This document shows positions 9,084 to 46,448 of a stretch of 64,000 bases of DNA, one piece after another. A program made the position numbers and the translations under genes. Numbering within the stretch: the first letter of the stretch is position 1; each line of letters starts with the position of its first letter. This stretch comes from an uncultured Verrucomicrobiota bacterium. GTDB taxonomy: Bacteria; Verrucomicrobiota; Kiritimatiellia; CAIQIC01; Lenti-01. The stretch lies in assembly GCA_964393515.1 (NCBI GenBank), contig CAYMTY010000012.1:3473-67472 (forward strand), given 5' to 3'. The notes beneath the pieces were generated by a model. The model made no database searches and was not told the origin of the DNA. It was given only the letters and a program-made list of their open reading frames with translations.

Positions 9084-9125
9084 TTGGTCATTGGATATTG
9101 GGTATTGGATATTGGATATTGGATA
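9084..9125. repeat. Heptanucleotide tandem repeat (TTGGATA/TTGGTCA/TTGGGTA) x6 immediately upstream of nfeD
   Basis: Direct reading: ttggtca ttggata ttgggta ttggata ttggata ttggata. This is an AT-rich microsatellite in a GC-rich genome. Confidence 0.9.
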
Positions 9126-9149
9126 TTGAGTTTTCCGTCCCCCCGCCCC

Positions 9150-11220: not shown

Positions 11221-11577
11221 CTAGAAACTGACGCGCCAGCCGATGGCCGCGCCGGCCAGTTCGGCGGAGGCCGCCCCGCCGGTGGTCTCCAGCCCGATGG
11301 GCGCCGTGATCGCTTGCAAGACCAGGGGGGATTCCTCCGCCGCCCGCGCGGCGCGGGCGATCGCCGCATCCACGTCTTTGGCCGTGTAGCGCTCGACGTC
11401 GGACCGCAGCGACACCAGCCCGTAGACCACGACGATCGTGAACATCAGGCCGACGGTGACCGCCGCGCCGATGGAATCCGCACCCGTTTCGGCGCGCGCC
11501 GGCGCCGCCGGCAGCGTGGCCCACACCAGCGCGGCCGCCAGAATCGCCGCCGTCCCGCTCCAACCCTTGTGCTTCAT
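11221..11577 (-). CDS. Small secreted hypothetical protein (signal peptide + one hydrophobic helix), last gene of the mla operon
   Basis: Real portion of track ORF 11221..12606. MKHKGWSGTAAILAAALVWATLPAAPARAE is a signal peptide with an AXA site. ATG at 11577. Confidence 0.5.
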   Translation of the reverse strand: MKHKGWSGTAAILAAALVWATLPAAPARAETGADSIGAAVTVGLMFTIVVVYGLVSLRSDVERYTAKDVDAAIARAARAAEESPLVLQAITAPIGLETTGGAASAELAGAAIGWRVSF

Positions 11578-11600: not shown

Positions 11601-12584
11601 CTAGAACGCCCCGAAGAAAATGCTGGTGAAGGTCGTGATGGGCGAGGTTTCGCGGATGTCGTCCACCGCCGCCCGGCCCTCGCGCACCAGCGCCTTGAAT
11701 TCCGTGTAGAGCTCGTCGTCGGAAACCAGCCGGCCGATCGTCCCCTCGCCCCGCGCGATGGTCTCGGACATCTGGCGGAACGCGGCCAGGGTCGCCGCCA
11801 GGTCGTCGTAGACCTGGCTGTCGCCGGTCAGCAGGCGGCCCAGCGTGCCTTCGCCCTGGTTCAGCCGCGCGCTGATGTCCTTGAGGTTCGCGGCGACGGC
11901 CTGCACGTCGCCGTACACCGCGTCGTCCTGGATCAGCTTGCCGAGCGTGCCCTCGCCCTTGGCCAGGGCGCCGCTGATGTCGCGCAGGTTGGCGGCGGCC
12001 TGCTGCACGTCGCCGTAGACCGTGTCGTCGTTGATCAGCTTGCCCAGGGTGCCTTCGCCCTCCGCCAGGCGGGTGGCGATCTTGCGGGCCTGCTGCAGCG
12101 TGCCCCGGAAGTCGTCGAGGATGCCGTCGTGGAGGGCCTGGCGGATCTCCTCGACCGTGCGGGTGGCGGCGTCGATCAGGTCGGTCGAGGGACTGCCCTG
12201 GTAGATCTTCTGCCGGGGCAGCTCCGCGGCCTCGTAGGTGCCCTCGTGGATGTTCAGGTAGCGGCCGCCCAGCACCGACGTGGGCAGCACCTCGATCCGG
12301 TAGTCCGTCCGCAGATGCACCGGCATCGTCAGCAGCGCCAGCACGTGCACGCCGTCCTTCTTCAGGGCGATCTGCTTCACCTTGCCGACCGTCACCCCCC
12401 GGGCGTTGACGGAGTCGCCCACCCGCAGCCCCATGGCGTTGTCGAACAGGATCTCCACCGGCCGCTCCGCGCGGAACAGCGCGTCGCGGCTCAGCACCAC
12501 CGTCAGCAGAAACAGCGCCGCCAGCACCGCGAAGCTGAACAGCCCCACCGCGCTTTCCACGAAAATCTGCCGCTTGAACTTCAT
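11601..12584 (-). CDS. mlaD: MlaD/MCE-family ABC-transporter periplasmic substrate-binding component with repeated GEGT(L/I)G(K/R)L coiled segments
   Basis: N-terminal TM anchor (MKFKRQIFVESAVGLFSFAVLAALFLL), an MCE domain, then four repeats of EGTLGKLI...DVQ. The start overlaps the mlaF stop. Confidence 0.85.
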   Translation of the reverse strand: MKFKRQIFVESAVGLFSFAVLAALFLLTVVLSRDALFRAERPVEILFDNAMGLRVGDSVNARGVTVGKVKQIALKKDGVHVLALLTMPVHLRTDYRIEVLPTSVLGGRYLNIHEGTYEAAELPRQKIYQGSPSTDLIDAATRTVEEIRQALHDGILDDFRGTLQQARKIATRLAEGEGTLGKLINDDTVYGDVQQAAANLRDISGALAKGEGTLGKLIQDDAVYGDVQAVAANLKDISARLNQGEGTLGRLLTGDSQVYDDLAATLAAFRQMSETIARGEGTIGRLVSDDELYTEFKALVREGRAAVDDIRETSPITTFTSIFFGAF

Positions 12585-14154: not shown

Positions 14155-15629
14155 TTGGCTCCGGCGCCCTGCCCGCCCGGGGCGGCCAGCCGGACCCGGC
14201 CCAGCCAGAGGAGGCGCACTTGACGATTTGTAGCGGTTCGGTCGTAGGCGAGCAATCCTTTCAGCACGGACCAGCGCCGGCCGCCGGCGGCCCGCTCGTG
14301 CTGCCACAGCGGGAAGAGCGAAACCGCCCGGGCGTTGTCTTTCCGCCGCGTGTCGCGGTACAGGCCCCAGAGCACGTCGAGGTCGCGCCGCTCCCCGTTC
14401 CGGCGGTAGTCCCACAGCGTCCACAGCGGCGCCCAGCTGCGCTCGACGGGCGGGGGGTGCACGGCCGGCCAGAGGTCCGGCGCCCGCCAGAGGCAGGTGC
14501 CCGCCTCGCGGTCCACCTGCCGGGAGCATAGCGGCCAAAGCTTCGTGCGGTTGGCCACCGCCGCCGCGGCCTGGCGTTCCGCTGGCGGCAGGGCCGCCGT
14601 CTGCGACACGCAGTTCCAGAACGGCGCCACGCTCCAGCGGGTGATCTTCCGCCCGCCCCACGTGTTCTTCTCGCGGGTGATGATGGGCCACAGCCAGTAG
14701 CGCCGGTCCAGCACGCCGTCCTTGCGGTAGCCCCACAGCGGCCAGACGGACAGCCGCGTGCGGTAGCCCGTCTCCCGCTGGAAGAACGGCCACGGGCAGA
14801 ACAGCCGCGTCTGCCGGTCGCCGCCGATGCGCTGGAAGAACGGCGGCAGGACCATCCAGCCTTTCTGGCCCTCCAGGTCCACCCGGCCACAGAGCGGGAA
14901 CAGCACCCAGGCCGTGCCCGGCGCCTTGGGGTGGGTGTAGCGCGCGTGCGTCCAGAAGGGCCACAGCACCGTGTGCTTCTCATGCTGCCGCGCGTTCTTC
15001 GTGCGGGCGTAGAAGGGAAAAACCCGCAGCTTCTCCAAGTGGCCGTCGGGCGTCGTCGTCCGCGAATAAAGCGGCCAGAGCACGTCTGTCGTCCGCACGT
15101 CGTTCACCGCGCTGCGCGCCCACAGCGGCCACAGGAAAAACCGGATCCGGTCCTTCCACAGGATGTTGCGGACCTCCCCGCCCAGCGGGAACAGCGCCGC
15201 GTAGCCCCGGCCGTTTTCGTCCCGCCCGTGGAACCACAGCGGCAGGATCCAGAACCGGTACTGCGACTCCGGATCGGTCCGGTCCTTGTCGAAGAAATAC
15301 GTCGTCAGCGCCCGCCAGTAGCGCTCCGCGCCGAACGCCCGCCCCGACGCCGCCGGCCACAGGCAGTCCCACGACGACCGGTCCGTCGCCGGATCGGTCG
15401 CCCGCGCGTACAGCGGCCGCGGCACCGCCCGCAGCCGCATCCCGCCCGGCCCCTGGGCCGCCTCCCAGAACGGGCCCGCCGCGCGCAGCCGCCCGTTCCC
15501 GTCCGCGTCCACCAGCTCCGAAGCCAGCGGCCCCCAGTCCCATTCCAGGCACCACGGGACCACCGGCCCGTCCGCGCGCGCCCCCGCGCCGGCCAGCCAC
15601 GCCAGCACCGCCACGGTTTTCCACACCAT
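14151..15629 (-). CDS. Secreted protein built from about 20-aa Trp/Pro-rich repeats (LWPL / FPLW / WPFW motifs). First gene of the mla operon.
   Basis: Signal peptide MVWKTVAVLAWLAGAGARA. At least 15 quasi-periodic repeats such as VLWPLYSRTT, VLWPFWTHARY, SVWPLWGYRKD, WLWPIITREK, KLWPLCSRQVD, PLWTLWDYRRN, SLFPLWQHERA. The stop overlaps the mlaE ATG (ATGA). The track extends this ORF to 16763, but everything upstream of 15629 is the low-GC repeat region. Confidence 0.55.
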   Translation of the reverse strand: MVWKTVAVLAWLAGAGARADGPVVPWCLEWDWGPLASELVDADGNGRLRAAGPFWEAAQGPGGMRLRAVPRPLYARATDPATDRSSWDCLWPAASGRAFGAERYWRALTTYFFDKDRTDPESQYRFWILPLWFHGRDENGRGYAALFPLGGEVRNILWKDRIRFFLWPLWARSAVNDVRTTDVLWPLYSRTTTPDGHLEKLRVFPFYARTKNARQHEKHTVLWPFWTHARYTHPKAPGTAWVLFPLCGRVDLEGQKGWMVLPPFFQRIGGDRQTRLFCPWPFFQRETGYRTRLSVWPLWGYRKDGVLDRRYWLWPIITREKNTWGGRKITRWSVAPFWNCVSQTAALPPAERQAAAAVANRTKLWPLCSRQVDREAGTCLWRAPDLWPAVHPPPVERSWAPLWTLWDYRRNGERRDLDVLWGLYRDTRRKDNARAVSLFPLWQHERAAGGRRWSVLKGLLAYDRTATNRQVRLLWLGRVRLAAPGGQGAGAK

Positions 15630-15790
15630 GGAAAACTGTTTCGCCGTTTTTCCACGCAATGGAAAATATTTTTCCACACCGTGGAAAAATCGACCGGTTT
15701 TTTCCACATCCCGGAAGACTTTTTGGCGAATTTTCCACACTATGGAAAAATATTTTCCACACCGTGGAAAACTTCCCTTGTCCGCCGTCC
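15628..15790. promoter_or_regulatory. Array of six 19-21 bp palindromic sites TTTTCCAC-N3/4-(R)TGGAAAA, which are DnaA-box-like TTTTCCACA 9-mers on both strands, in a low-GC (about 40%) stretch
   Basis: Direct reading: TTTTCCACACCATGGAAAA / TTTTTCCACGCAATGGAAAATA / TTTTTCCACACCGTGGAAAAAT / TTTTTTCCACATCCCGGAAGACTTTTT / TTTTCCACACTATGGAAAAATA / TTTTCCACACCGTGGAAAAC. Five plus-strand 9-mers match the relaxed DnaA-box consensus TTWTNCACA. The first site contains the start codon of the WP-repeat gene. Confidence 0.5.
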
Positions 15791-15828
15791 GCAGAACGCG
15801 GAGACCGGGGATTTCTTCCGGATTTTTA

Positions 15829-15983
15829 CGGGCTTTCCCGCGGAAATAAGCCGCGAATTTTCCGATGAGGCCGCTTCGCGGACGACCCGAGCTGGACTCG
15901 TGTCCGCGAGCGGTCGGCCGCGAAGCGGTCGCGCGGAAAAGACGCGGCTTGGTTTCCGCGCCGTCACAATCCGGAAGAAATCC
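15829..15983. repeat. Copy A of a conserved roughly 160-bp palindromic element with 13-bp terminal inverted repeats (GGATTTCTTCCGG ... CCGGAAGAAATCC)
   Basis: About 85% identical to 46238..46402. A 50-nt core, GCCGCTTCGCGGACGACCCGAGCTGGACTCGTGTCCGCGAGCGGTCGGCC, is identical in both copies. Long imperfect hairpin potential: GCCGCTTCGCGG pairs with CCGCGAAGCGG, with the alternative partner GTCCGCGAGCGG. Confidence 0.8.
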
Positions 15984-16015
15984 CCGATTTTTCATCTCGT
16001 CACTTTCGCCATGGC

Positions 16016-17380
16016 CTACAGCAGCAGCCGGCCCTTCCCGGCCGGGCCGACGAACTGCCCGTTGCGCACCATGATCTCGCCGCGCACCGTCACCACCTCC
16101 GGCGCCCCGACCACCGCAAAGCCTTCGTAGGGATTGTAGTCCGTGCCCAGGCTCTGGGTCTTCCGCGAGATCGTGCGCTTCACGTTGGGATCCCACACGA
16201 CCAGGTCGGCGTCGAACCCCGGCGCGACCGCGCCCTTGCGCCCCCACAGCCCGAAAATTTTCGCCGGATTCTCCGCCGCCACCTCCACGAACCGCTCGAG
16301 GGAGATTTTGCCCCCCACCACGCCCGCCGTGTACGCCAGCGCCACGCGCTCCTCCACGCCCGCGATGCCGTTGGGGATCTTCGTGAAATCGCCCCGCCCC
16401 AGCGTCTTCTGCCCCTGGAAGTCGAACGGACAATGATCCGTCCCCAGCGTGTCGATGCGGCCGTCCGCCAGCCCCCGCCACAGCGCCTCCTGGTCGGACT
16501 TTTCGCGCAGCGGCGGCGAGAGGATCCACTTTGCGCCCTCGAAATCCCCGCGCTCCGCGTACGACTTGTCGAGCACCAGGTACTGGATCATCGTTTCGAT
16601 GTATAATTTCTTCAATTTTCCGCGGAAGCGGTCGGCCATGGAGAGTGCCTCGGCGCAGCTCAGGTGGACGACGTACGCCTTCGCACCCGCCGCTGCCGCG
16701 AAGGTCAGGAACTTGCAGACGCCCTCGGCCTCGACCATCGGCGGCCGGCTCGGTTCGTGCCATTCGGGCCCCGTCTTGCCTGCGGCCAGCAGCTTCTGCT
16801 GCAGCGCCGGGATCAGGTCCGCGTTCTCGCAGTGCGCCAGCACGACCAGGTCGTGCGCCGCCGCGAACTCCAGCACCCGCAGCAGGTCCTCATCCGCGAT
16901 CGCCAATGCCGGCTTGTAGGCCAGGTAGATCTTGAGCGACTTCAGCCCCTGCGCCGCCAGCCGTTCCAGTTGCTTCTCCAGTTCCGCGTCGTAGCGCCGG
17001 ACCATCAGGTGCAGGGCGTAGTCGCACGAGGCCTTCCCGTCCGCCGCCGCGCGCCACGCGGCCCACGCCTCGTCGAAGTCCTTCTCCCGCCCCGCCCCCG
17101 CGAAATCCATCAGGCAGGTCGTCCCGCCCAGCAGCGCCGCCTGCGTGCAGTTGGCAAAATCGGACTTCGCCGTCACGTTCACCAGCGGCAGCCAGGCGTG
17201 CACGTGCGGATCGATGAACCCCGGGAACACCAGCTTGCCCGCCGCCTCCACCACCGTCGCCCCCGGCGGCGGCGCGATTCCGGCCGCGACCCGGGCAATC
17301 TTTTCCCCCTCGCACCAGACGTCCGCGGCGCCGCGGCCCCGCGCCGTCACCACCTCGCCGCCGCGGATCAACAAGCCCAT
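16016..17380 (-). CDS. Cyclic amidohydrolase (dihydropyrimidinase / D-hydantoinase / allantoinase family)
   Basis: Metal-binding PGFIDPHVH, carbamyl-lysine region LKIYLAYK, HCEN and GTDHCPF motifs. 454 aa. Confidence 0.8.
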   Translation of the reverse strand: MGLLIRGGEVVTARGRGAADVWCEGEKIARVAAGIAPPPGATVVEAAGKLVFPGFIDPHVHAWLPLVNVTAKSDFANCTQAALLGGTTCLMDFAGAGREKDFDEAWAAWRAAADGKASCDYALHLMVRRYDAELEKQLERLAAQGLKSLKIYLAYKPALAIADEDLLRVLEFAAAHDLVVLAHCENADLIPALQQKLLAAGKTGPEWHEPSRPPMVEAEGVCKFLTFAAAAGAKAYVVHLSCAEALSMADRFRGKLKKLYIETMIQYLVLDKSYAERGDFEGAKWILSPPLREKSDQEALWRGLADGRIDTLGTDHCPFDFQGQKTLGRGDFTKIPNGIAGVEERVALAYTAGVVGGKISLERFVEVAAENPAKIFGLWGRKGAVAPGFDADLVVWDPNVKRTISRKTQSLGTDYNPYEGFAVVGAPEVVTVRGEIMVRNGQFVGPAGKGRLLL

Positions 17381-17389: not shown

Positions 17390-17752
17390 CTACTTCCGCA
17401 GGATCTTCCGGATGCGGTTCCGGGCATCCACCTGCACCACCGTCGCCTTGAACTTCCGGGCCTCCGCGTCGTCCACCTGCGCGTAGGCAATGACAATGAT
17501 GGTGTCGCCCCGGTAGGCCAGGCGCGCCGCGGGGCCGTTCAGCATCATCTGGCCCGAGCCGCGCCGGCCGCGGATGGCGTAGGTGACGAAGCGGGCGCCG
17601 CTGTTCAGGTTGAGGACCTGGACCTGTTCGCCGGGCAGGATGTCCGCCGCCTCCAGCAGGTCGGGATCGATGGCGATGCTGCCCTCGTAGTCGAGTTCCA
17701 GCCCCGTCACCGTCGCGCGGTGGATTTTCGCCTTCAGCATCGTCCGTTGCAT
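17390..17752 (-). CDS. panD: Aspartate 1-decarboxylase
   Basis: [60 protein letters not shown] aligns residue-by-residue with E. coli PanD [29 protein letters not shown]. This includes the self-processing Gly-Ser (YEGS). Confidence 0.9.
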
Positions 17753-22994: not shown

Positions 22995-23262
22995 AACCCG
23001 CCCGGCGCAGAGGCCGGGCCTACATCTTGATCCCCGCCCTATTTGCAGGCCAGCCCTCTGCGGCTGGCGAATACCCGCCCGGCGCAGAGGCCGGGCCTAC
23101 ATCTTGATCCCCACCCTATTTGCAGGCCAGCCCTCTGCGGCTGGCGAATACCCGCCCGGCGCAGAGGCCGGGCCTACATCTTGATCCCCACCCTATTTGC
23201 AGGCCAGCCCTCTGCGGCTGGCGAACACCCGCCCGGCGCAGAGGCCGGGCCTACAGGCAAAA
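22995..23262. repeat. 77-bp tandem repeat x about 3.4, BIME-like. Each unit is a REP-like palindrome in forward and inverted orientation separated by a 27-nt spacer.
   Basis: Unit: CCGCCCGGCGCAGAGGCCGGGCCTACATCTTGATCCCCACCCTATTTGCAGGCCAGCCCTCTGCGGCTGGCGAATAC. It repeats with only 2-3 substitutions. GGCGCAGAGGCCGGGCC and GGCCAGCCCTCTGCGGC are near-reverse-complements. It lies in a convergent intergenic region. Confidence 0.85.
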
Positions 23263-24463: not shown

Positions 24464-27400
24464 CTATTTGCTCCGGAGCCGGATGAAGAGCGTGCCGTCC
24501 GCGTCCGGATCCACCACGGTGTCGGTCAGCCCGGTGGTGGCGGCGCTCACCGCCCGCTGCACGCCGACCCCGGTCCAACCCGCGCCATCGGTGAGATCCT
24601 CGTTCACCATGAATTCCACGACGGCCGAGTTGCCTGCCGGGTTCACCTCGGTGACATTGTAGGTCACCACGGCGCCGGTGGCGGTTTTTTCGATGCGGGT
24701 GATGACGGTACCGGCGGTGATGCCGCTGGGGGGCCGGTCGAACCGGTTGTTGGGATCGGAACCGGCGGCCAACTCGACGCCATCGCTGTAGCCGTCGCCG
24801 TCGGAGTCCCACATCAGCGGATTGGTCCGGCGGACGACGACCTCGTCGGCATCGTTGATGCCGTCGCCGTCGGTATCCGCCATCCGGGGATCCGTGCCCA
24901 GATCCCGTTCCTGGGCATTGGGCAGGGTGTCGCCGTCGGGATCGCCGTCCGGCCCGTCGTCGCCGGTGGGAACCAGCGGATTCAGGCGGTAGCGGACTTC
25001 CCAATCGTCCTGCAAGCCGTCGTCATCGGAATCTGCGTCGCAGGGGTTGGTGCCGTTGGCCTGTTCGAGGGCGTTGGACAGGTTGTCGCCATCCGCGTCC
25101 GCGGTGCCGTCGGCGGGATCCCGCGGGTCGAGACCGGCGCAGGCCTGGTAGGTGAGTTCCCATCCGTCGAGCAGGGTATCCCCGTCGGTATCGGGATTGG
25201 CGGGATTGGTGCCGTAGATTTCGAGTTCGGCCCGGTCATTGAGCCCGTCGAAATCGCTGTCCCAGCGCATGGGATTGGTGCCCAGCGCCAGTTCGGCTTC
25301 GTCGGTCAGGCCGTCGCCGTCGCTGTCCACGTTGTTCTTCCAGTAGGCCAGCGAATTATAGATCAGCAGATTCTGGCCCGGCACCGATCCTTGCGAAGTC
25401 AGCGCCAGGGTTTTCACGGAGAATTCCAGCGCGTAGGGCAATTGAGAGCCGGTCGATCCCTTGGGGTTCGCTTTGCGGGCCAGGATGATCCCGCCCGAGG
25501 GCTCGCCCTTGAGGAAGCCCCACGGCTCGCCGACATCCAGCATTCCGTTGCTGTTCCGGTCCAGGAAACCCCGGACATGATAGGCCCCGGCGCGCAGGCC
25601 CAGCAGGGTGTAGCTGCCGTCGGCGGCCGCCCGGACACGGGCGGCGGGGGTCTGATCAAAACCGGCCCCGGCAAAGGCCTCCACGACACGCACGCCGGTA
25701 TTGGTGCCGAAGTAGCCGATCTTGCCCCGGATGGTGCCGGCCCCGACGGGCGCCGGCTGCAGGTTGACCGAGAAGGGCGCCGAGGCCGTTCCGGAGCTGA
25801 CGCGCGGATTGAGGGCCGAGACGCGGATGGCATAGTCGCCATTGGTAAAAGTTCCCCAGCCCGCCAACCAGGGCAGGTCCATCTCGGCGATGCCGGCGTT
25901 GTTGACCACCGGCGCGGGGACCGTGAAGCTCAAGAAGGTGGTCCCGCCGCGCTGAATCTGAACCGTCACCTGGGCGGCATTCTTGGAAAGGCGGAGCTGC
26001 AGCCGGTTCCGGGCATGCGGCAGGGTCATGTTGGTCGGAGACAAGATGCTCGGCGCGGCCAAGGAGGCGGCATACCAGATGCTGTTCGAGCCCGAGGCAA
26101 ATACATTGGTACCGGTCATGACGATGGAACCATCGGAGGGCGGCGCCCCACCGACCACGGCCCACTTGTAGTTCCCGTACAGGGGTGCCACGCCGGCCTG
26201 CCGGAAATCCATCTCCGTGATAAACGGCCGATCCATGGATTCCAGGTCGCGCACCGCGGAATAGATGATGGAGCCGCCGATCTGCTGGATCGATACGATG
26301 TAGGTCGTGCTGTTCACCTGCGCGAGCGCCGCGGCGATCTTCGCCAGGTCCTGCTCCCACGAGAAGCGGATGTAGCCGGCCGGCTTGTCGGTCAGGGTGA
26401 CGCGGACGTCTGCGGAGCCCCACTGGATGTTTTCGACGCCGCTCTGCGCGAAGCCCTCGCTGAAGCCCAGCCACTCGGCCTCGCCGGCTGTGCCGCCGGC
26501 GTTCCACTTGCCGTCTCCGTTGGCATCGATGAACGCCATGAAGATGTTGTTCCCCTGCCGCAGGTGGCCGACATCCCAGTTGGTGACCGTGCAGGTGCTG
26601 CCGTTGGCGAACAGGCCCTCCAGCGGGATGACGGTCCGGGCATCCGGCCGGCGCATGGCCAGGTCCGAATAGGCCCAGACCACGAGCGGGGCTTCGGCCG
26701 ACAGCGTGGCCGCCGCATCGCCCAGGAAGGTGAAGGTCACCGGCGGCACCGGATAGGAGTCGGGGTCGTCGGGCCGGGTCGGCCCCACGGCCATCCGGTT
26801 GGTGACGCCCTCCACCACGGTCAAATCAAAACCCGTTCCCAGGTATTCCGCGAGATTGTGCCAGCCGTCGCCGTCGGGGTCGGTGCCGGCGTCGTTGACG
26901 AGCGGGCTCAGCACGTCGGCATAGATGATCTCCCAGGCGTCCGGGATCAGGTCGCCGTCCATGAAGTATTCGCCGAAGCTCAGGCAGTTGCCGACGCAGA
27001 GCGGATCGTTGGAGTCGTAGTCGCTGAAGCCGTCGCCGTCGCTGTCCCAATCGGTGGGATTGGTGCCGGCCAGGTATTCGGCCAGGTTGGTCAGGCCGTC
27101 GCGGTCCGGGTCGCCGTAGGCGCCGTCGTTGCCGCGTTCGCTGTTGGGATCCAGGCCGTACAGGGTTTCCCAGCCGTCGGGCAGGCCGTCGCCGTCGCTG
27201 TCGCTTAAGAAAGGCTGGTTTTGCTGGGAGAGCACTTCAAACGCCACATCGCCCACCAGCCGGCCGGCATAGTCCCAGTTGTTCTGGTAGATCAGGTTTT
27301 CCAGGGTGGCGCCGCCATCGTCGGCGGGATAGTAGCCCACCAGCGCAGTCAGGGCGTAGACCCGCAGCGGGTAGAAGTTTTCCAGGGGTGCCTGGTCCAC

Positions 27401-30400
27401 CGTGCGCACGTGCAGTGCGCCGGGGATGTACGTGCCGTACTCCATGTCCGGATTGCGCACGGCCGCCCGGTCTTCCGCATGCACCCCCTGCTGGAAGTCG
27501 AAGTTGAAATAGCTCACCAGGCCGCTTTCGCTGCCGTACAGGTTCTGCTTCATGGCGCTGCGGACTTCCTCGGTCGTGAGCGCGTTGTTCCAAATGCGGA
27601 CTTCGTCGATGTCGCCCGCAAGGCCGCGGCCGATCTCCACGGGACCGTCCAAAATGCGGATTGACAGGTCCGTGTAATCCGTCCCGATCGAAATCGGCAC
27701 CAGCAGGCTGTTCTGGATGGCAGACAGTTCACCGTCGATGTACAGGGTGGTGTTCATCTCATCCCGCGTGTAGGCCACGTGATGCCATTTGCCGTCGTTC
27801 ACCGGCTTGGCCGAGATCAGATTGTTGATCGAGGTGTTAACAACCACATCGCCAACGGTCACGACCCCGTTGGTATCCGTGTCCGTTTCGCGCCATTGGA
27901 TTGCAAACCGGCCGACCAGCCGGCCGCCCTCGCCGACGGTGAGGGCGTAGTTGAAATCGTCGGTTTCGCCGATGACATTCCCCGTGTTCACGCGGGAGAT
28001 GATGGCGCCGGCGTCGTCCGAAGTGCGCACCCAGCATTCCAGGGTCCAGGTCTGCAACTGGTCGCGGGCCGTGTTGGGGGCCGCCACTTCGCGCAGATGC
28101 CCCTGGTCGCCCACGACGCGCAGCAGGCCGGAATCGGCAGCGGCCACCCCGAAGAGCAGATTGCGGCGGCTGAATTCCTGGATGTCCACGTCCCGGCGGC
28201 CGATCTTCCAGATCCGCACGTCCTTCAGACGGCCCACGAAGCCATTGCCGCCGAAATAGGTATCGCCCGGGCCCTGGGCCGGATCATAGCTGGTGATCTG
28301 GGAGCGGACCACCTGGCCGTTGATGAACAAGCCCAGGCTGCCATCGGAGAGGCGCCCGGCCAGATGCACCCACTGATTCGTCTCCAGCGGGAGGTTCACG
28401 GTCAGTTCCGTGAGGTTGGCGTCGTTGAAGTGGTTGAAGCGGACATAGGGTACGATCTGGTTGCTGCCGTTGTTGCGGATGCCCAGTTCGTAGTTGAGCC
28501 AGTTGCTGCAGCGCACGGTGCGCTGCACGAGCGGCTGATCCACGCCCAGCGGCGGCACGGCCTCCGGCTGGACGAAGCATTCGATCGTCCACTCCTCGGC
28601 GCCCAGGTGTTCCGTGTCCACGCCCCGGACCCGGTCCGCCACCACGATTTCGCCCGCGCCGCCCGAGGCCCCGAAGCGGAGCGCCTTCATTTCGTAGGGA
28701 ATCATGGAATAGGCCGGATCGGTGGCGGCCGCGAGTTCCCCGTTGTCGTCCAGGCCGGAATCATCGGTGTCCCGGCGGTCCACCCGGCTGCCGTGGTGGG
28801 CCTGTTCATCCCGGCTGATCAGCGTATCGCCGTCGTGATCCTCATTGCCGTCACCGGTGCCATTGCCGTTGCTGTCGGCCAGCACCGGATTCAGGGACGG
28901 CAGGCCCAGCGCCTGGTTCATGAAGCTGATTCGCCATTCATTCAGGTTGGTCAGGCCGTCGCCGTCGGGATCGTCGTCGGGCTCGTCCTCCTCGGTCTGC
29001 GCCAGGAACCACTCCTCCCACCAGACGGGCATGTCCTCTTCCGAATCCACGAACGAGTAGTTGAAGGGCGTGATGGCGGTCGCGAACGTTGCGGCGTCGA
29101 AGGCCACGCCGGTGAGGGCGTAGTCCCAGTTCCGGAACTGGGTGTAGTCCTCCGCCAGCAGGCCGCCGTCGTCGAAGGGATAGAAGGCGAAGTCCTCCGC
29201 GGCATCATCGGTGACAATGGCGGTGAGGATCTGGGACAGTTCGGAGCCGCCCGGCGCCGGGAAGAAGGTGCCGCCGGTTCCGGTGGCAATGCGCTCCAGT
29301 TCGAACGTGCTGCCGGCCAGGATCGAGGAGCCGAAGCCCACGGTGTTGACCTTGGCGCCCAGCGTCACGAGCTGGGCCAGATCCGTGTCCGTCGGCACGC
29401 CCGAGTTGGGCACGCCGTCCGAGATCAGGATGCCCACGTATCCGCCGGGGGCTTCGCGACCCGAGATGATTTCGATCATCTTGGACACGGGCGCGCTGTA
29501 GCTGGTGTTCCCGATCGGGACCAGGGAATCGACCAAGGTCTTCAACGTGTCCCGGTCGGCGGTGAACTCCTGGACCATCTGGACTTCGTTGTCGAAGGTG
29601 ATGATCGCCATGGAAGCGCCCTTGGGCATGGAATCGATGGCGACCGTGGCGGCCTCCTTGGCCTGGTCCATGCGGCTTTCCGCGGCCATGCTGCCCGAGA
29701 CGTCGATCATCAGGACGTAGTCGGCCGAGGGCATACCGCCGCCCAGCAATTGGCGGCCGATGAACACATCGTCGATCCGGCCGGTGATGTTCTCCCCGAT
29801 GTAGGTGGCGCCCCGCCCCGTGATGCAGGGCGCGGCGACGTTCAGGGCCGCCACGACGCAATCATCGACCAGGAGCCGCAGAATGTGGTTGGACGGGCTC
29901 CACTCGGCAATCACGGCGGAGAACCGGTCGGTCGGCAGCGGGTCGGTGCCGCTGGCCGTGTAGGTCGCCATCAGGGGGTTGTTGAAGCGCACAAAGGGGA
30001 CGTTGTTATTCAGGCCCAGTTCGAAATGGATGCCGCCGCCCTCCACGTCCCGCCGGATGAGGGAGCCGGTCTGGGCGGCATCGGGCTTCACCATGGCCGC
30101 CAGATGCCACTGGGCAAGGTTTTCGAAACGCTGCGGGGTGAGATCGTCTTCAAGCACCCGCTGGGGCTCCGGAACCAGCACGGGGGTTCCGTCCAGCACC
30201 AGGCTGCGGTCCACCTGCGGGCTCCGCGAATAGATGCCGGAGGTGTTCTCGGTGACCTCCAGGTCGTCCCGGCGGCCATCGTCGTCCGTGTCGGAATTGT
30301 CCGGATCGGTGCCCCAGGTCCAGATTTCCGCCGCATTGGCCAGGGTGTCGCCATCGCTGTCCCATTCGGCGTCGGTCAGGCGGCCGGTGGGATCCTGGGA

Positions 30401-33400
30401 GTACATGCCGTGCGGATCGCTGCCGATGCGGAATTCCCAGTAGTTGCTGAGGCCGTCCCCGTCGGGATCCTCTTCGGCCACGGAAGCGCCGCGCGGATCG
30501 AACCCGTGTTCGAGGTACCACCAGTCCGGGATGCCGTCGCGGTTGGAGTCATAGCTCATGCTGGCACCGGCGCCGGCGCCGTCCCACAATTCGACCGCGG
30601 CGTCCGCCCGGGCGTCGCGCAGGGGCAGCAGATCGTTGAAGAGCGAATTGTCCCGGGTCGTGAAGACCAGGTGTTCCTGGTTCAGGGCGTCCGGGTGGTT
30701 CTCCAGCCATTCGGTGGCGCCGTGATAGTAACCCATATTGTAGGGATTGGCGCTGTTGGGGAAGTCGCGCTGCTGCTGGATCACGGTGGTCACGTTGGTG
30801 GCCACGTTGGTGACCGTCACCACGTCGCCGTCCGTGTTGGTGGTGGAAGTCGTGGTGATCTCCAGGTTGGTGACCTGGACGGGGACCATCATCTGGTTGT
30901 AGGGCGAATCGGGCGGCGGATCGAGCGGGAAGCGCGCGGCGATGTTGGCGATCCACGGCACATAGTGGTAGTTGTCATACACCGTGGACCGGTCGAGGGC
31001 GGTTCCCCACCACGGCACGTTCGGATAGGAGCCGTCGTTTGGCCGGCCGTTCAAGAGCTCGAAGCCGGCGGGCGCGACGCCTTCGCCCGCGGTCAGCGGG
31101 TCCATCAGGTTGTTGAAATTGTAGAGGTACATCAATTCCGGCGCGGCGGGGGTGTCGGTCACCGCGGCGCGGTTGGCGATCACATCGTCCAGGTCCATCT
31201 TCGCCATGCGCTCCTGCGCGATCTGGGCGCTGGTTTTCGCGCCGTTCCAGATGCGCACTTCATCCACCCAGCCTTCGAAGTAATTCGACAGGTCCGGCTG
31301 GGTCAGGACGGTCCCGGCATAGTACCCGACGAGGATCGGCGTGCCCGACACCCAGCCGTCCGGATTGTTTTCTTTCGCGCCCACCACGATCGGCGCGGAA
31401 AACACAAAGGCGGGATTCCCGGTGAACCAGCCGTTGGCGGGCCGTTCGGCGCTGGCCACGCTGGCGCGCATTTCCCCGTCGATGTACAGATACAGGCGCT
31501 TGGCGGTCCCGTCATACACCCCGGCCAGGTGATACCAGCGATCGGCCTGCAGGGCGTAGGCGCTGGCGGCCTTGGCTTCCACGTAGAGCGCGTCGTAGCC
31601 CAGCCCGTTGTAGGCGACATACGGCTGCCCATTGGCATCCAGGGCCAGCCGGAAATTGAGCCGGTTGCCTTCCGGGAAGCCCATGAGATTGCCGTTGGGC
31701 ACGGTCATCGGCCGTTCCAAGATGACCTGCATCTCGCCCTTGGCCGGATTGACGGCCCGGACCCAGGTCTCGATGGTGAAGGTGGTCATGGCGTAGGCGG
31801 GATGGAGGAACCGGCCGCGGGTGCGGGCGGCGGCATCGCCGTCGAGATACAGGGCGCGCCGGCGCGGCGGCGATTCCACGTTCAGCGGATCCGTGCTGCC
31901 CGGGCTGGTGGGCGTATGCACGAGTTCGGCCCGGTCACCCAGCATGTCGCTGTCCGAGTCAAAGCCTTCGCTGGAGGCAAACGAGAACATATAGGACGGC
32001 GGCGGACGAATCGTCGAGCCCCAATACCAGTAATTCAGCAGGTTGCCGAGGCCGTAATACAGGTTCACCCAGCTGAGCTGGTAGCTGGTGTCCCGGACCC
32101 ACAGCGGCGAAGGGCTGGTGTGGTAGTAGGCCGGAGCCGGGACATTGGCCTGAATGGATTCATCCGAGTTGGGCAAGCCGTCCTGGTCCGGGTCGGCAAA
32201 CGGGGAACCGGCGACAAAGGGCCACAGGCGGATGTCGAAGGTGGGCGGTACTCCGGCAAAGACCGTGGCGCCGAGGACCATGGACTGGTGGATGTCCAGC
32301 GTCCCGTACATGGGATTCAAGCCGTGATAGATCTCCCAGAAATCATCCATGCCGTCCCAGTCGGTATCGGCGACGCGCGGGCTGGTGGCCGTGTACCGGT
32401 TGTTGACGTGGTTGATGTAATAATAGTCGTAGGTGTTCTGCTGGCTGTTCCAATCCCAGGGGAACGGCGTGCCGCCGAAGAACAGCATGGGGTCGTAGCT
32501 GCCCAGCGGTTGGTTGGCGATCCATTCCGTATAGCGCCAGTGGTGCACGGACCCGCTCAGGTACTCCTGGTAGTTGACCAGCCCGTCGTCGTCATAATCC
32601 GCCGGGGCGTCCTTGTGGGTGCCGTCCATGCCGTTGCGGCCGTCCAGGTCGGTGATGTCATAGATCGTCGAGCGGTAGCGGGCCTCCCAGTGGTCGGGGA
32701 TGGCGTCGCGGTCCGTGTCGGCTGTCGTGGGGTTGAGGCCGCAGCCGATGTAGCAGCTGTTGTTCCAGTTGATGACGCCCCCGGCGTACTTGAGGACGGC
32801 CAGGCTGCCTTCCGCGTCCTCGCCGCCCGGGAGATCCTTGTCGCTGTAGCCGCCCTCGCCGCCGTCGATCAGGCCGTCGCCGTCGGTGTCGTCCACATTG
32901 GGATCGGACGGCCAGACCTTGTTGAGCCAGGCCATGTCGAAATGGGTCCGGCCGTTGGGCCAGCTCGCTCCGCGGGTCAGATTGATGTCGTAGGCGCTGA
33001 ATTCCTGGAAGGCGTTCAAGCCGTCCGCATCCCCGTCCACAATGGCGTCGTCCTGGTTCACGGGATTGAGCCCCACATAGAGCTCCCAGCCGTCGAAAAT
33101 CCCGTCGGTATCCGTGTCGATGCTCAACGGATTCACGGCAAAACTGTTGAAATTGGCGCAGGAAAACCCGCCCTGGAGGAAGCCCAGGTAGAGGGTGGCC
33201 AGGAATTTCTCGCGGTTGTTGAAGGGCTGCGTGTTTTCCTGGCCGGAGAGGGCCCGGACCGTCCCGCGCGTCAGATAATTTTCACCCCAGCCGGTGCGGG
33301 GGTCGAATCCCAGTTCGTCGTACACCTGCCGGTGGCGGAATTCGGAAACGCCGTCGTCGTAATAGGCCATGTAGTCGCCGGAGGGATTGCGGGTGCCGTC

Positions 33401-34495
33401 GGCCGGATCAATGGGCTTGAGGCCCATCCGGATTTCAAAGCCGTCGGCGATCTCATCCGCATCCGTGTCCCAGTGGAAAGGATCGGTACCAGCGAGGAAT
33501 TCATCCCGGAGGCCGGCGCAATCGCCATCCAGATCCTCCGTCGGGTCCACGACCAGCTCAAAGCCGAAGGTGGCCAGCATGGCGGGATTGAGCAGCGGCA
33601 GCGTCGGGATGGCCCAGCTCACGGTGGGATCGAAGGAGGGCACATCGAGCGCCACCCCCTCGAGCAGGAGGGTGACGCCATCATTGAGCAAGCTGCCGTA
33701 GAAATAATACTTCCAGCCGTCGGAGATCCCGTCGCCGGCGGTGCTGAGCAGCGTCGGGTCGGTGCCGGGATCGTCATTGAAACCAGTGAGGGCATTGAAG
33801 CCGTACCAGCCGTCGAAGCCGCGGGCCTGGAACCAGTTGTTGAAGGGAATCGTGCCGATGTAATAGTCGGGCGGCCGCACCCCCGTGACGGGGAAGCGGA
33901 AGGGCCAGTCGGTATTGATCACGGCCGGATAGGCCCCGGACGCGAACTGGTTCATGGTGCCGGGAGTCCACCCGCCCGGCATGGTGTCGCCGGAGGGATT
34001 TCCCGTGCGCCCGTCGTTGCCGGTCGCCTTCTTGTGGTTCAGGCCGTACTTGTATTCCCACTTGTCCGGCAGGCCGTCGAGGTCGACATCGCCCACCCCT
34101 TCCCCGGGATGGTATTCCCGGCTGAAGAGAATGGTGATGTCCTTGTCTTCATCCAGGGTCAGTTGGATGCTGGTCAGGTTGATATGGGGTCCCTCGCCGA
34201 GATGCTCGGGAATGTCCCCGCCCCATTCGCAGACGAAACTATCATAGGGCCCCACCGGGGTCGGCGTCAACGTAATGGTGACGAGATCGCCTTCCACATA
34301 GGGGCCGGCCGGATTGACGACATACGTACCGGTACCCACCCCTTGCAATCCCTGATAGTCGGCCGGCAGCACCGTGATGGCCAGGGATACGGGATCCTGC
34401 GCGACGGCAGGTTGAATCCCCGCCACGACCAGCAGGGCAAGTGCCCCGAGGCAAACCGAAACGACGCTGAAGGGTGTCCGTTTGTTTTTCATCAT
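24464..34495 (-). CDS. Giant (3343 aa) secreted multidomain protein: multiple LamG/concanavalin-A-like lectin domains, a VWA domain with MIDAS, many thrombospondin type-3-like Ca-binding repeats (DxDxDGxxD), and a C-terminal beta-domain
   Basis: Signal peptide MMKNKRTPFSVVSVCLGALALLVVAGIQPAVAQ. LamG-type signatures end in ...VDEVRIWN (at least four occurrences). VWA: MIDVSGSMAAESRMDQAKEAATVAIDSM...ISDGVPNSG. TSP3-like: DTDGDGINDADE, DSDGDGYSDGVE, DPDGDGLTNLNE and many more. Both antisense giant ORFs in the track (24230..27208 + and 27779..34939 +) are GC artefacts. Confidence 0.85.
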   Translation of the reverse strand: MMKNKRTPFSVVSVCLGALALLVVAGIQPAVAQDPVSLAITVLPADYQGLQGVGTGTYVVNPAGPYVEGDLVTITLTPTPVGPYDSFVCEWGGDIPEHLGEGPHINLTSIQLTLDEDKDITILFSREYHPGEGVGDVDLDGLPDKWEYKYGLNHKKATGNDGRTGNPSGDTMPGGWTPGTMNQFASGAYPAVINTDWPFRFPVTGVRPPDYYIGTIPFNNWFQARGFDGWYGFNALTGFNDDPGTDPTLLSTAGDGISDGWKYYFYGSLLNDGVTLLLEGVALDVPSFDPTVSWAIPTLPLLNPAMLATFGFELVVDPTEDLDGDCAGLRDEFLAGTDPFHWDTDADEIADGFEIRMGLKPIDPADGTRNPSGDYMAYYDDGVSEFRHRQVYDELGFDPRTGWGENYLTRGTVRALSGQENTQPFNNREKFLATLYLGFLQGGFSCANFNSFAVNPLSIDTDTDGIFDGWELYVGLNPVNQDDAIVDGDADGLNAFQEFSAYDINLTRGASWPNGRTHFDMAWLNKVWPSDPNVDDTDGDGLIDGGEGGYSDKDLPGGEDAEGSLAVLKYAGGVINWNNSCYIGCGLNPTTADTDRDAIPDHWEARYRSTIYDITDLDGRNGMDGTHKDAPADYDDDGLVNYQEYLSGSVHHWRYTEWIANQPLGSYDPMLFFGGTPFPWDWNSQQNTYDYYYINHVNNRYTATSPRVADTDWDGMDDFWEIYHGLNPMYGTLDIHQSMVLGATVFAGVPPTFDIRLWPFVAGSPFADPDQDGLPNSDESIQANVPAPAYYHTSPSPLWVRDTSYQLSWVNLYYGLGNLLNYWYWGSTIRPPPSYMFSFASSEGFDSDSDMLGDRAELVHTPTSPGSTDPLNVESPPRRRALYLDGDAAARTRGRFLHPAYAMTTFTIETWVRAVNPAKGEMQVILERPMTVPNGNLMGFPEGNRLNFRLALDANGQPYVAYNGLGYDALYVEAKAASAYALQADRWYHLAGVYDGTAKRLYLYIDGEMRASVASAERPANGWFTGNPAFVFSAPIVVGAKENNPDGWVSGTPILVGYYAGTVLTQPDLSNYFEGWVDEVRIWNGAKTSAQIAQERMAKMDLDDVIANRAAVTDTPAAPELMYLYNFNNLMDPLTAGEGVAPAGFELLNGRPNDGSYPNVPWWGTALDRSTVYDNYHYVPWIANIAARFPLDPPPDSPYNQMMVPVQVTNLEITTTSTTNTDGDVVTVTNVATNVTTVIQQQRDFPNSANPYNMGYYHGATEWLENHPDALNQEHLVFTTRDNSLFNDLLPLRDARADAAVELWDGAGAGASMSYDSNRDGIPDWWYLEHGFDPRGASVAEEDPDGDGLSNYWEFRIGSDPHGMYSQDPTGRLTDAEWDSDGDTLANAAEIWTWGTDPDNSDTDDDGRRDDLEVTENTSGIYSRSPQVDRSLVLDGTPVLVPEPQRVLEDDLTPQRFENLAQWHLAAMVKPDAAQTGSLIRRDVEGGGIHFELGLNNNVPFVRFNNPLMATYTASGTDPLPTDRFSAVIAEWSPSNHILRLLVDDCVVAALNVAAPCITGRGATYIGENITGRIDDVFIGRQLLGGGMPSADYVLMIDVSGSMAAESRMDQAKEAATVAIDSMPKGASMAIITFDNEVQMVQEFTADRDTLKTLVDSLVPIGNTSYSAPVSKMIEIISGREAPGGYVGILISDGVPNSGVPTDTDLAQLVTLGAKVNTVGFGSSILAGSTFELERIATGTGGTFFPAPGGSELSQILTAIVTDDAAEDFAFYPFDDGGLLAEDYTQFRNWDYALTGVAFDAATFATAITPFNYSFVDSEEDMPVWWEEWFLAQTEEDEPDDDPDGDGLTNLNEWRISFMNQALGLPSLNPVLADSNGNGTGDGNEDHDGDTLISRDEQAHHGSRVDRRDTDDSGLDDNGELAAATDPAYSMIPYEMKALRFGASGGAGEIVVADRVRGVDTEHLGAEEWTIECFVQPEAVPPLGVDQPLVQRTVRCSNWLNYELGIRNNGSNQIVPYVRFNHFNDANLTELTVNLPLETNQWVHLAGRLSDGSLGLFINGQVVRSQITSYDPAQGPGDTYFGGNGFVGRLKDVRIWKIGRRDVDIQEFSRRNLLFGVAAADSGLLRVVGDQGHLREVAAPNTARDQLQTWTLECWVRTSDDAGAIISRVNTGNVIGETDDFNYALTVGEGGRLVGRFAIQWRETDTDTNGVVTVGDVVVNTSINNLISAKPVNDGKWHHVAYTRDEMNTTLYIDGELSAIQNSLLVPISIGTDYTDLSIRILDGPVEIGRGLAGDIDEVRIWNNALTTEEVRSAMKQNLYGSESGLVSYFNFDFQQGVHAEDRAAVRNPDMEYGTYIPGALHVRTVDQAPLENFYPLRVYALTALVGYYPADDGGATLENLIYQNNWDYAGRLVGDVAFEVLSQQNQPFLSDSDGDGLPDGWETLYGLDPNSERGNDGAYGDPDRDGLTNLAEYLAGTNPTDWDSDGDGFSDYDSNDPLCVGNCLSFGEYFMDGDLIPDAWEIIYADVLSPLVNDAGTDPDGDGWHNLAEYLGTGFDLTVVEGVTNRMAVGPTRPDDPDSYPVPPVTFTFLGDAAATLSAEAPLVVWAYSDLAMRRPDARTVIPLEGLFANGSTCTVTNWDVGHLRQGNNIFMAFIDANGDGKWNAGGTAGEAEWLGFSEGFAQSGVENIQWGSADVRVTLTDKPAGYIRFSWEQDLAKIAAALAQVNSTTYIVSIQQIGGSIIYSAVRDLESMDRPFITEMDFRQAGVAPLYGNYKWAVVGGAPPSDGSIVMTGTNVFASGSNSIWYAASLAAPSILSPTNMTLPHARNRLQLRLSKNAAQVTVQIQRGGTTFLSFTVPAPVVNNAGIAEMDLPWLAGWGTFTNGDYAIRVSALNPRVSSGTASAPFSVNLQPAPVGAGTIRGKIGYFGTNTGVRVVEAFAGAGFDQTPAARVRAAADGSYTLLGLRAGAYHVRGFLDRNSNGMLDVGEPWGFLKGEPSGGIILARKANPKGSTGSQLPYALEFSVKTLALTSQGSVPGQNLLIYNSLAYWKNNVDSDGDGLTDEAELALGTNPMRWDSDFDGLNDRAELEIYGTNPANPDTDGDTLLDGWELTYQACAGLDPRDPADGTADADGDNLSNALEQANGTNPCDADSDDDGLQDDWEVRYRLNPLVPTGDDGPDGDPDGDTLPNAQERDLGTDPRMADTDGDGINDADEVVVRRTNPLMWDSDGDGYSDGVELAAGSDPNNRFDRPPSGITAGTVITRIEKTATGAVVTYNVTEVNPAGNSAVVEFMVNEDLTDGAGWTGVGVQRAVSAATTGLTDTVVDPDADGTLFIRLRSK

Positions 34496-34541
34496 TTGCT
34501 CCTGGCAGAGACGGCCCGACTGGTAAACATGGTCCTACAAA

Positions 34542-35045
34542 TCATGGCTCTTCTTCCAAAACGTCCTGTGTCTCGGCGGCGCCGGCCGGCCGGCTCAACG
34601 CGCGCAATTCATCCAGCAGGGCGGTCTCCTGCTCGCGCAAGGCACGCCACTGCTCATCCGCGCCCACCTGGGCTTCCAACTGCAGGCTTTTCTCCCGCAG
34701 CTTCTGCCGCGATTCTTCTATTTCCCGGACCAAGGCGCGCGCGCCTTCGCCGGCCTCGATTTGCTGGCGGCGCTGGAAGACGTCCCGGCGGACGGCGATC
34801 AACTGCGTGCGCAACTGGTCCAGGCGTTCGGTCCGGGCTTCCGGCGAAAGCGCCGGTGTCTCGGCGGCAACCGCCTCGACTGCCGGTGGCGGGGCCGCGG
34901 GTGGCGCTTCCGGCGGCGGGGCTTCCGCCGGTGCGATAACCGGAACGCAGGCAACGCAAAGCGCGATCAAGCCACAGCGCACGGTTCCCGCCCCGAGGCG
35001 GGTGCGCCGGCAGAGTTCCGGCCGAAAAAACAGCGTAGCGATCAT
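34542..35045 (-). CDS. Small secreted acidic coiled-coil protein (partner 1), 46 bp upstream of the 3343-aa gene
   Basis: From ATG 35045: MIATLFFRPELCRRTRLGAGTVRCGLIALCVACVPVIAPAEA (signal), then a Pro/Ala/Glu linker, a coiled-coil heptads segment (LDQLRTQLIAVRRDVFQRRQQIEAGEGARALVREIEESRQKLREKSLQLEAQ) and an acidic tail. The track start at 35153 is unsupported. Confidence 0.5.
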   Translation of the reverse strand: MIATLFFRPELCRRTRLGAGTVRCGLIALCVACVPVIAPAEAPPPEAPPAAPPPAVEAVAAETPALSPEARTERLDQLRTQLIAVRRDVFQRRQQIEAGEGARALVREIEESRQKLREKSLQLEAQVGADEQWRALREQETALLDELRALSRPAGAAETQDVLEEEP

Positions 35046-35166
35046 CTGTTCAATCCTAGGTCTTGTTGGGTTCCTTGTCAACGGCGGCAAATCGCCGCGC
35101 CGGCCCGCCGCAACCGCGGGAAGCGTCAGAAACCGGCTGCATTTCATTTCCATGATCTCCGCGGGA

Positions 35167-46085: not shown

Positions 46086-46237
46086 GGATGTTCCGGGGAT
46101 TCATAACGCAAAAGGCGCACGGGACGCAAGAAAACAGCCGACAGCCGGAACTACGAATGTCGCGAATCGCACGAATGAACCGCTGACGAACACCACGGGG
46201 ATCAACGTGTCCGCCCACCGCAGGTGCGGCAGGCGGA

Positions 46238-46402
46238 GGATTTCTTTGGGATTTTGCCGGGTTTTCTCGCGAAAATAATACGCAGATTTTCCGGAGATGC
46301 CGCTTCGCGGACGACCCGAGCTGGACTCGTGTCCGCGAGCGGTCGGCCTCGAAGCGGCAGAACGGAAAAGATGCGGATTGGTTTTCGCGCCGGCGAACTC
46401 CC
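46238..46402. repeat. Copy B of the roughly 160-bp palindromic element (TIRs GGATTTCTTTGGG ... CCCAAAGAAATCC), inserted between hisD and hisC
   Basis: Aligns base-by-base with 15829..15983. The identical 50-nt core is retained. The TIR substitution CCGG to TGGG is mirrored by CCGG to CCCA at the other end, a compensatory change. Confidence 0.8.
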
Positions 46403-46448
46403 AAAGAAATCCTCTTGTCCCCGAACTGTCCGAAACGGAAGCAGGCGG

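Follow-up and report, generated by a model that had tools for sequence, protein, structure and literature searches.

A palindromic intergenic repeat family of Kiritimatiellia with a fold conserved on one strand

Introduction

REPIN hairpins are mobile DNA in which compensatory changes are common, and their excision has been described as leaving partial hairpins behind (PMC3116915). The REP hairpin carries a conserved unpaired GTAG (or CGTC) tag at its foot as a family property (PMC3733652). Transposition of single-stranded DNA is coupled to replication, and in the IS200/IS605 elements the active strand lies on the lagging-strand template (PMC3333891, PMC6006769). Kiritimatiellia and related PVC bacteria are a group whose repeat biology is almost undescribed, and our search of the literature did not find a description of a Kiritimatiellia repeat of the kind reported here. 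The family is previously undescribed, while belonging to a known kind, the palindromic intergenic repeats.

The element occurs twice in a window of 64,000 nucleotides (the whole stretch of DNA that was analysed) from an uncultured Verrucomicrobiota bacterium. Like the REPINs (RAYT/TnpA-REP Y1), it is a non-coding intergenic repeat that forms a long hairpin in single-stranded nucleic acid, has conserved ends and a less conserved interior that is kept paired by compensatory changes, persists vertically in a clade, and is found in clusters and tandems and as partial, "collapsed" copies. With the classical MITEs (Correia/NEMIS, RUP) and the ERIC/IRU repeats it shares a length within 100-250 bp, terminal inverted repeats, the lack of an open reading frame, an intergenic and often co-transcribed position, and presence or absence between relatives; an imperfect palindrome over the whole length is a further likeness to ERIC. 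It resembles the IS200/IS605 elements and PATEs in having a functional secondary structure on one strand and no clear target-site duplication, and IS200/IS605 also in an orientation that appears to correlate with replication direction. Finally, it is similar to the attC sites of integrons, which are imperfect palindromes functional as one folded DNA strand and located just after gene ends.

Results and Discussion

Structure of the two window copies

Each window copy is a unit of about 207 bp (Table 1), composed of a small 5' hairpin of about 30 nt, here called S, followed by a rod-like hairpin of 176 nt. The initial annotation had described two copies of about 85% identity that share an identical 50-nt core, and this is confirmed: the copies are 84-86% identical across an alignment of about 175-210 nt, and the core matches the window exactly twice, where the chance expectation is 0. 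Neither blastn at word size 7 nor a profile search adds a third copy in the window. The 13-bp inverted repeats with compensatory substitutions were likewise recovered in both copies, the difference being CC/GG in copy A and TG/CA in copy B. The boundaries first assigned require correction, however. The copies themselves are real, but the start given for copy A (15829) is internal and misses the left repeat, and the end given for copy B (46402) cuts the right repeat. Similarly, terminal repeats of a palindromic element are indeed present, but the imperfect palindrome spans the entire 176 nt and not the ends alone (76% self reverse-complement identity over 181 nt), and a conserved module of about 30 nt, S, lies 5' of the left repeat. 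The folding energy of the rod is far below that of shuffled sequences (-87 ± 4.6 kcal/mol; Table 1).

Protein coding across the element was considered and is excluded because frame-shifting 1-nt indels separate the copies; substitutions that track base pairing and not codon positions also contradict a coding reading.

Table 1. Positions of the repeat units, their parts and the neighbouring features in the window
Feature	Position	Strand	Remarks
Copy A, whole unit	15777-15985	+	about 207 bp
Copy A, module S	15777-15806	+	GTCC-GCA-GAAC within an outer CCGC/GCGG-type stem; 5' of the rod in all full copies
Copy A, rod hairpin	15807-15985	+	179 nt, GGGGATTTCTT... to ...AAGAAATCCCC; MFE -137 kcal/mol, z = -11
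Copy A, left inverted repeat	15809-15821		13 bp, GGATTTCTTCCGG
Copy A, apical core	15870-15919	+	50 nt, identical in both window copies
Copy A, right inverted repeat	15971-15983		13 bp, CCGGAAGAAATCC
Copy B, whole unit	46206-46414	+	about 207 bp
Copy B, module S	46206-46235	+	CACC-GCA-GGTG variant
Copy B, rod hairpin	46236-46414	+	GAGGATTTCTTTGGG ... CCCAAAGAAATCCTC
Copy B, left inverted repeat	46238-46250		13 bp, GGATTTCTTTGGG
Copy B, apical core	46299-46348	+	
Copy B, right inverted repeat	46400-46412		13 bp, CCCAAAGAAATCC
Palindrome array (context, outside the element)	15617-15771		five TTTTCCAY-N3-RTGGAAAA, 19 bp each
Amidohydrolase, dihydropyrimidinase-type	16016-17380	-	Pfam; stop codon about 30 nt from the right end of copy A
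panD	17390-17752	-	Pfam
Class I/II aminotransferase (hisC-like)	45045-46085	-	Pfam; start about 120 nt past the left end of copy B
hisD	46449-47765	-	Pfam; stop codon about 34 nt from the right end of copy B

Distribution of the family

A 24-mer taken from the core matched 17 loci in a one-genome-per-species collection, and all 17 loci are in Verrucomicrobia or Verrucomicrobiota MAGs. At least 12 copies are found in a single fragmented MAG, ADurb.Bin018. Several, perhaps many, of the core-matched loci are at contig ends, and the copies at many MAG contig ends could make the family useful in assembly and strain typing. A scan independent of the core, using the terminal repeats and one inner box, identified 56 metagenome loci in activated sludge, bioreactor and digester samples, and a profile search of all loci yielded 79 full-length copies (51 unique) along with many partial ones. 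All copies come from Verrucomicrobia/Kiritimatiellia MAGs and from sludge or digester metagenomes, and the nearest homologues of the window's hisD and dihydropyrimidinase genes carry Kiritimatiellia labels.

Homology between genomes always covers the same span of about 207 bp. The rod is strictly 175-176 nt long across copies, the terminal inverted repeats (GGAGGATTTCTT... / ...AAGAAATCCTCC) bound a short non-coding unit in all copies, and module S follows a consensus of about 30 nt (CTTGTCCGCYGT[G/C]CGCAG[C/G]ACGTG...). The element was not matched in phages or plasmids by BLASTN, nor in a scan of viral contigs. Rfam gave no match to the window at gathering thresholds, and at E values up to 10 the region 15550-16050 gave only chance hairpin matches far below threshold.

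Conservation of the fold

Covariation was assessed on an alignment of 49 distinct sequences, with 500 shuffles and slid alignments as controls. The consensus fold of the + strand has 72 pairs, and 98.5% of cells are paired in the 49 sequences compared with 41-52% in the slid controls. Changes on both sides were found in 27 pairs (197 cells), and none of the 500 shuffles reached any of the measures, which bears out the original suggestion of selection for pairing. The inner stem of S covaries as well (GTGC/GCAC, GTCC/GGAC, CACC/GGTG).

The two strands are not equivalent. The consensus energy of the + strand is -107 kcal/mol with 72 pairs, compared with -81 kcal/mol and 61 pairs for the - strand, and the + strand is the more stable in all 19 lineage representatives (clustered at 92% identity), with mean values for + and - of -136 and -120 kcal/mol under RNA parameters and -80 and -74 kcal/mol under DNA parameters. 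The same representatives contain 82 G·T oppositions and 11 A·C, and conserved tandem G·A pairs occupy symmetric internal loops, where the opposite strand has C·T. Columns 82/172 are AU in 19 sequences, GC in 17 and GU in 13, and intermediates of the G·U type are possible on the + strand only. As these wobble states run against the local compositional trend, the + strand context being C-rich, mutation bias is an unlikely cause of them. We conclude that selection maintains the fold on a single strand, which in the window is the + strand.

The apex of the rod is near-invariant (ACGACCCGAGC-NNGAC-TCGT-GTCNN-GCGAG-NGGTCGG), as are two internal boxes that do not vary across lineages (GGATTTCTT/AAGAAATCC and ATTTTCCG/CGGAAAA), and outside the apex and these boxes the lineages differ by about 20%. 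With a unit of 207 nt, covariation in 27 of its 72 base pairs and an apex that is invariant, the family is a well-defined model. RNA and single-stranded DNA are not separable by sequence here, G·U/G·T and tandem G·A pairs being tolerated in both. Compensatory changes had initially been taken to favour RNA over mobile DNA, a view that does not hold, as the mobile REPIN hairpins show them too (PMC3116915), and the present case shows that compensatory change alone cannot separate a structured RNA from a mobile DNA hairpin.

A switch-like alternative stem, in which GCCGCTTCGCGGAC would pair with GTCCGCGAGCGG, had also been proposed. Counted on the 49 sequences, this stem shows 81% pairing and 0 pairs changed on both sides, and it is equalled by 493 of 500 shuffles. 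In ten sequences a C-to-G change in column 133 has no counterpart in column 108, still a G, so that the alternative stem is broken; column 122 changes from G to C, which keeps the local apical stem. The change of GTCCGC to GTCGGC is compensated by that of GCTGGAC to GCGCGAC, which belongs to the local apical stem, and not by GCGGAC. A riboswitch-like reading is not supported.

Gain, loss and modularity

The element is absent from eight hisD loci of relatives, which total about 123 kb and whose hisD genes are 84-92% identical, and no copies were found in about 230 kb of relatives' loci. The locus orthologous to that of copy A keeps its synteny (panD, dihydropyrimidinase, secreted protein, mlaE). 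At the site of copy A, relative L086 has no element and its palindrome array begins 7 nt after the stop codon, L082 has no element and carries an unrelated filler, and L084 shares a flank with the window (CGAGATGARAA) and retains S and about 25 nt of the rod, with about 150 nt of the rod deleted. Comparison of these three loci shows turnover of the element and collapse of its hairpin, and the remnant in L084 is similar to the partial hairpins that REPIN excision is described as leaving (PMC3116915). The initial description as a MITE-like repeated unit stands, in that the unit is multi-copy, intergenic, and gained or lost between relatives. The filler at the "empty" site of L082 (about 11395-11415) consists of three ATATCCA units, reported as the reverse complement of ATTGGAT, a heptamer repeat present in 5.6 copies at 9090-9128 of the window.

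No consistent direct repeat that would represent a target-site duplication is present at the boundaries of 49 copies, and the empty site of L086, set against copy A, would allow a GAAAG/GGAAG repeat at most. A longer or autonomous unit with the same ends was not found in about 0.9 Mb of loci, in which the only end-to-end spacings are 160 nt and 300-400 nt and no unit contains an ORF. No gene for a partner transposase or other enzyme was noticed in the loci of up to about 15 kb around the copies.

The Bin018 lineage carries the element within a mosaic, and many copies there are preceded by the same small hairpin (AAGGCCCTGCCGGGCCTT). Some copies of the Bin018 type have the 50-nt apex replaced by an insert of about 200-300 nt bounded by inverted heptamer arrays, and module S also leads a different repeat type, by itself preceding these heptamer arrays. 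The element and its flank are in places duplicated in tandem, and truncated and split copies exist. Heptamer tandem arrays of GGTTCAC and TTCTGAC are also present in the window at 47778-47839 and 47850-47881, immediately upstream of hisD, and at 50093-50119. In Bin018-type loci (L009 700-730 and 840-870; L065), related arrays of GGTCAGG / CCTGAAC serve as the inverted arms of a second type of repeat. S precedes this second repeat too, and in some copies of the element the repeat is inserted within the apex.

We give an even chance to the reading of this element as a non-autonomous palindromic repeat family, about 207 bp in length and of the REPIN/MITE/ERIC kind, that folds as single-stranded nucleic acid. 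Such a repeat would be propagated in trans by a putative enzyme recognising the invariant boxes and the apex on the folded single strand, and co-occurrence analysis could reveal what moves or binds the element. The conservation of the apex across lineages could also reflect a host function instead of transposase binding.

Relation to flanking genes and transcription

Every full copy with callable flanking genes sits between genes. In the frame of the element the flanking-gene patterns are ++ in 12 cases, -- in 9, convergent in 6 and divergent in 1; the copies are mostly beside gene 3' ends and avoid divergent promoter regions, and their orientation relative to the direction of transcription is not fixed. 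Both window copies are + between minus-strand genes, in agreement with what was first noted. Copy B does lie between hisD and the hisC-like gene in the window, but its reading as part of a his operon spacer cannot be retained, as this linkage is not conserved in relatives. Following hisD, relatives carry 2 to 4 other genes or different genes, in an order that differs in every relative, so that none offers an empty site for comparison with copy B, and copy B is accordingly placed at a variable junction. Upstream of hisC by about 50 nt, a small hairpin plus T-run is found on the minus strand at 46135-46147 (CGGCTGTCGGCTG TTTTCTTGCG), within a stretch of about 60 nt conserved with relative L074. 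This conservation suggests that hisC is controlled from an upstream region of its own and independently of hisD.

The window copies occupy transcribed intergenic spacers about 30 nt after stop codons, and either strand would give a highly stable hairpin as RNA. A cis-acting role in the mRNA of the surrounding operons might be envisaged (terminator, attenuator, RNase III site or 3' stabiliser), including a role or switch at the his genes, and such effects are a feature of ERIC and Correia elements. We consider this role very unlikely because the copies point either way with respect to the flanking genes, whereas selection for the fold acts on a single strand. The mRNA across both window copies would moreover carry the less well-paired minus version, with no U-tract after the hairpin on that strand; the alternative stem has no covariation support; and the linkage of hisD and hisC is not conserved. 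Under the preferred reading as a mobile repeat, effects on neighbouring genes, for example of a very stable hairpin in read-through mRNA, would be secondary.

The + strand could instead be the RNA-like strand of a multi-copy structured sRNA gene, with its own promoter and a rod RNA of about 200 nt whose apex binds a protein or target, spread by duplication. The strand-specific conservation of a fold with G·U and tandem G·A pairs is consistent with such a gene, as are the invariant apical sequence, the strict length of 175-176 nt and a pyrimidine-rich tract after the hairpin, in which the first 30 nt of the right flank on the + strand are 74% pyrimidine compared with a background of 55%. This tract is C/T-rich and contains no U-tract, however, and no intrinsic terminator (hairpin plus U-tract) was found at the rod end on either strand of either window copy; the regions of both copies contain a few terminator-like sites elsewhere, in a number similar to that in shuffled sequence. 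A promoter scan found no sigma-70-like promoter near either window copy, and there is no sequence conservation upstream of S. At least 12 copies in one MAG, accompanied by truncated, split and tandem copies, would also be unusual for an sRNA gene, the apex is replaceable in some copies, and close relatives lack the element. It has no Rfam relative, and in skewed genomes every copy would be transcribed head-on to replication. Taken together, we regard an sRNA gene as unlikely.

Orientation and strand composition

Polarity was counted on sites clustered by their flanks, requiring at least 2 kb of flank and |GC skew| > 0.1. In 17 of 17 such clusters the + strand of the element is on the C-rich strand, whatever the direction of the genes, and across all 27 site clusters the skew is negative in 24 and positive in 3. 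Each lineage with a marked GC skew shows this placement of the + strand. Copies on the same contig are always co-oriented (7 independent sets, up to 49 kb apart, the window pair included). In the Bin018 lineage the sign of the local skew is mixed, and it differs between two loci of a single 57-kb contig (L035 versus the L062/L065 locus), so skew looks to be an unreliable guide in that lineage. With the leading strand called from GC skew alone, the C-rich strand would be the leading-strand template, and the orientation appears to be linked to replication rather than to transcription. This strict orientation to strand composition is, in our view, the most interesting feature of the element, because it is the better-folding strand that lies on the C-rich strand. 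If confirmed in complete genomes, it would represent hairpin repeats tied to replication direction in a manner unlike the IS200/IS605 paradigm.

Several observations on strand composition were made in passing. Whole-locus GC skew has a magnitude of 0.19-0.31 at L023, L039, L041, L042, L043, L049, L055, L060 and L072. In most of these Kiritimatiellia-type contigs about 87% of coding bases are on the C-rich strand, a bias that would not be expected with the G-rich strand as the leading one, and gene content in the strongly skewed loci gave no guide to which strand leads. In the window, two giant minus-strand ORFs of 3343 and 2987 aa follow shortly downstream of the hisC-like gene and occupy 24464-44130, a region whose GC skew is opposite in sign to the rest of the window, and relatives carry giant Laminin_G_3/TSP3 proteins at this position.

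For the mobile repeat preferred here, the folded single strand would more likely be DNA at replication forks than RNA, since no promoter was found, orientation relative to genes is mixed and orientation follows strand composition. The polarity might arise from orientation-specific insertion, by a mechanism of different polarity from that of IS200/IS605, or from selection against having the better-folding strand on the lagging-strand template. Hairpins on the lagging-strand template promote deletion and cleavage (palindrome instability, SbcCD). That the element represents a new type that is replication-polar and single-strand-specific, with a putative protein-binding apex, strikes us as rather improbable; it would be either mobile as single-stranded DNA with a polarity opposed to that of IS200/IS605, or a hairpin site maintained by the host, which may act on the leading-strand template or the nascent lagging strand.

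Host recruitment may also be framed more broadly, as a DNA structural site dependent on replication direction, where a hairpin or cruciform is bound by a chromosome-organising, repair or replication protein. The strict polarity and the co-orientation along contigs would fit such a site, as would boxes and an apex that are invariant across lineages differing by about 20% elsewhere, and the inner box ATTTTCCG/CGGAAAA resembles a half-site of the neighbouring TTTTCCAY...RTGGAAAA palindromes. The distribution is patchy, however, the element being missing from relatives with 84-92% identity in hisD or dihydropyrimidinase; genomes also differ widely in copy number, and decayed and collapsed copies exist. 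We know of no candidate binding protein. A structural site of this sort, comparable in role to BIME/REP protein-binding sites or polar chromosomal motifs, is in our judgment doubtful.

Differences from described families

A comparison of the element with the REPINs reveals several disparities. The element is about twice as long, with a rod of 176 nt compared with about 70-110 nt, its most conserved part is the apex and not only the ends, and it possesses an extra, asymmetric 5' hairpin (S). It lacks a conserved GTAG or CGTC tag; some copies do have a GTAG (CCGGTAGATTTT), but others show GTGG, GCGG or GCGA in its place, and the position falls within the paired rod. No RAYT gene was noticed near the copies in the loci of up to about 15 kb. 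The element also shows a clear polarity to GC skew, and its copy number is apparently in the tens, not the hundreds.

Compared with the MITE and ERIC families, the element has no definable target-site duplication in 49 copies, and about 0.9 Mb of loci yielded no parent IS whose ends match its own. Its arms are under a strand-specific pairing constraint, and it shows a polarity of orientation that has not been described for those families. Its sequence is not known to resemble the consensus sequences of Correia/NEMIS, RUP or ERIC/IRU.

In place of the single rod described here, the IS200/IS605 elements carry two subterminal hairpins, separate from each other, and they lack terminal inverted repeats; the orientation bias of the element (17/17) is opposite to theirs in sign, the better-folding strand being on the C-rich strand, which on GC skew only would be the leading-strand template. 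No associated TnpA or TnpB gene was noticed in the loci around the copies. In sedentary chromosomal integrons the recombinogenic attC strand is on the leading-strand template. The element nonetheless differs from attC in lacking R''/R' core sites (RYYYAAC/GTTRRRY), its ends being GGATTTCTT/AAGAAATCC, in having no cassette array or intI gene, in being flanked by conserved housekeeping genes (hisD, hisC-like, dihydropyrimidinase-type, mla-type), and in its high sequence conservation between copies and lineages.

Neighbouring palindromes and other repeats

The array beside copy A was initially described as a DnaA-box array. Inverted 9-mers similar to DnaA boxes are indeed present, but the array consists of 19-bp palindromes and is not accompanied by a change in the sign of GC skew. 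It lies upstream of a minus-strand gene that starts at about 15630, and the same array is found at the same locus in relatives, including ones that lack the element. An origin of replication at this position was considered and rejected: between 12 and 20 kb the skew keeps a value of -0.10 to -0.12, the surrounding genes (panD, dihydropyrimidinase, mla) show no dnaA/dnaN linkage, and similar arrays occur upstream of other genes. The array is probably an operator or other regulatory region and not oriC, because it is conserved in relatives at the mla-type locus and is without a GC-skew switch.

Each TTTTCCAY-N3-RTGGAAAA palindrome is made up of two inverted DnaA-box-like 9-mers. Arrays of 3-8 such palindromes are also found at L012 400-660, at about 11370-11560 of L082/L084/L086, and in L023 upstream of a DsbD-like gene. 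They directly precede genes that encode secreted or membrane proteins, extending over the start codon, and gene callers read them as FSxVWK repeats. Such a palindrome is often found no more than 10 nt from the left end of the element (window copy A, L043, L001).

Two further tandem repeats were observed in the window. A 77-bp repeat at 22996-23255 is present in 3.4 copies at 98% identity and contains GC-rich hairpins (GGCCAGCCCTCTGCGGCTGGC), and a 102-bp repeat at 11838-12070, with 2.3 copies at 79% identity, lies within a coding region.
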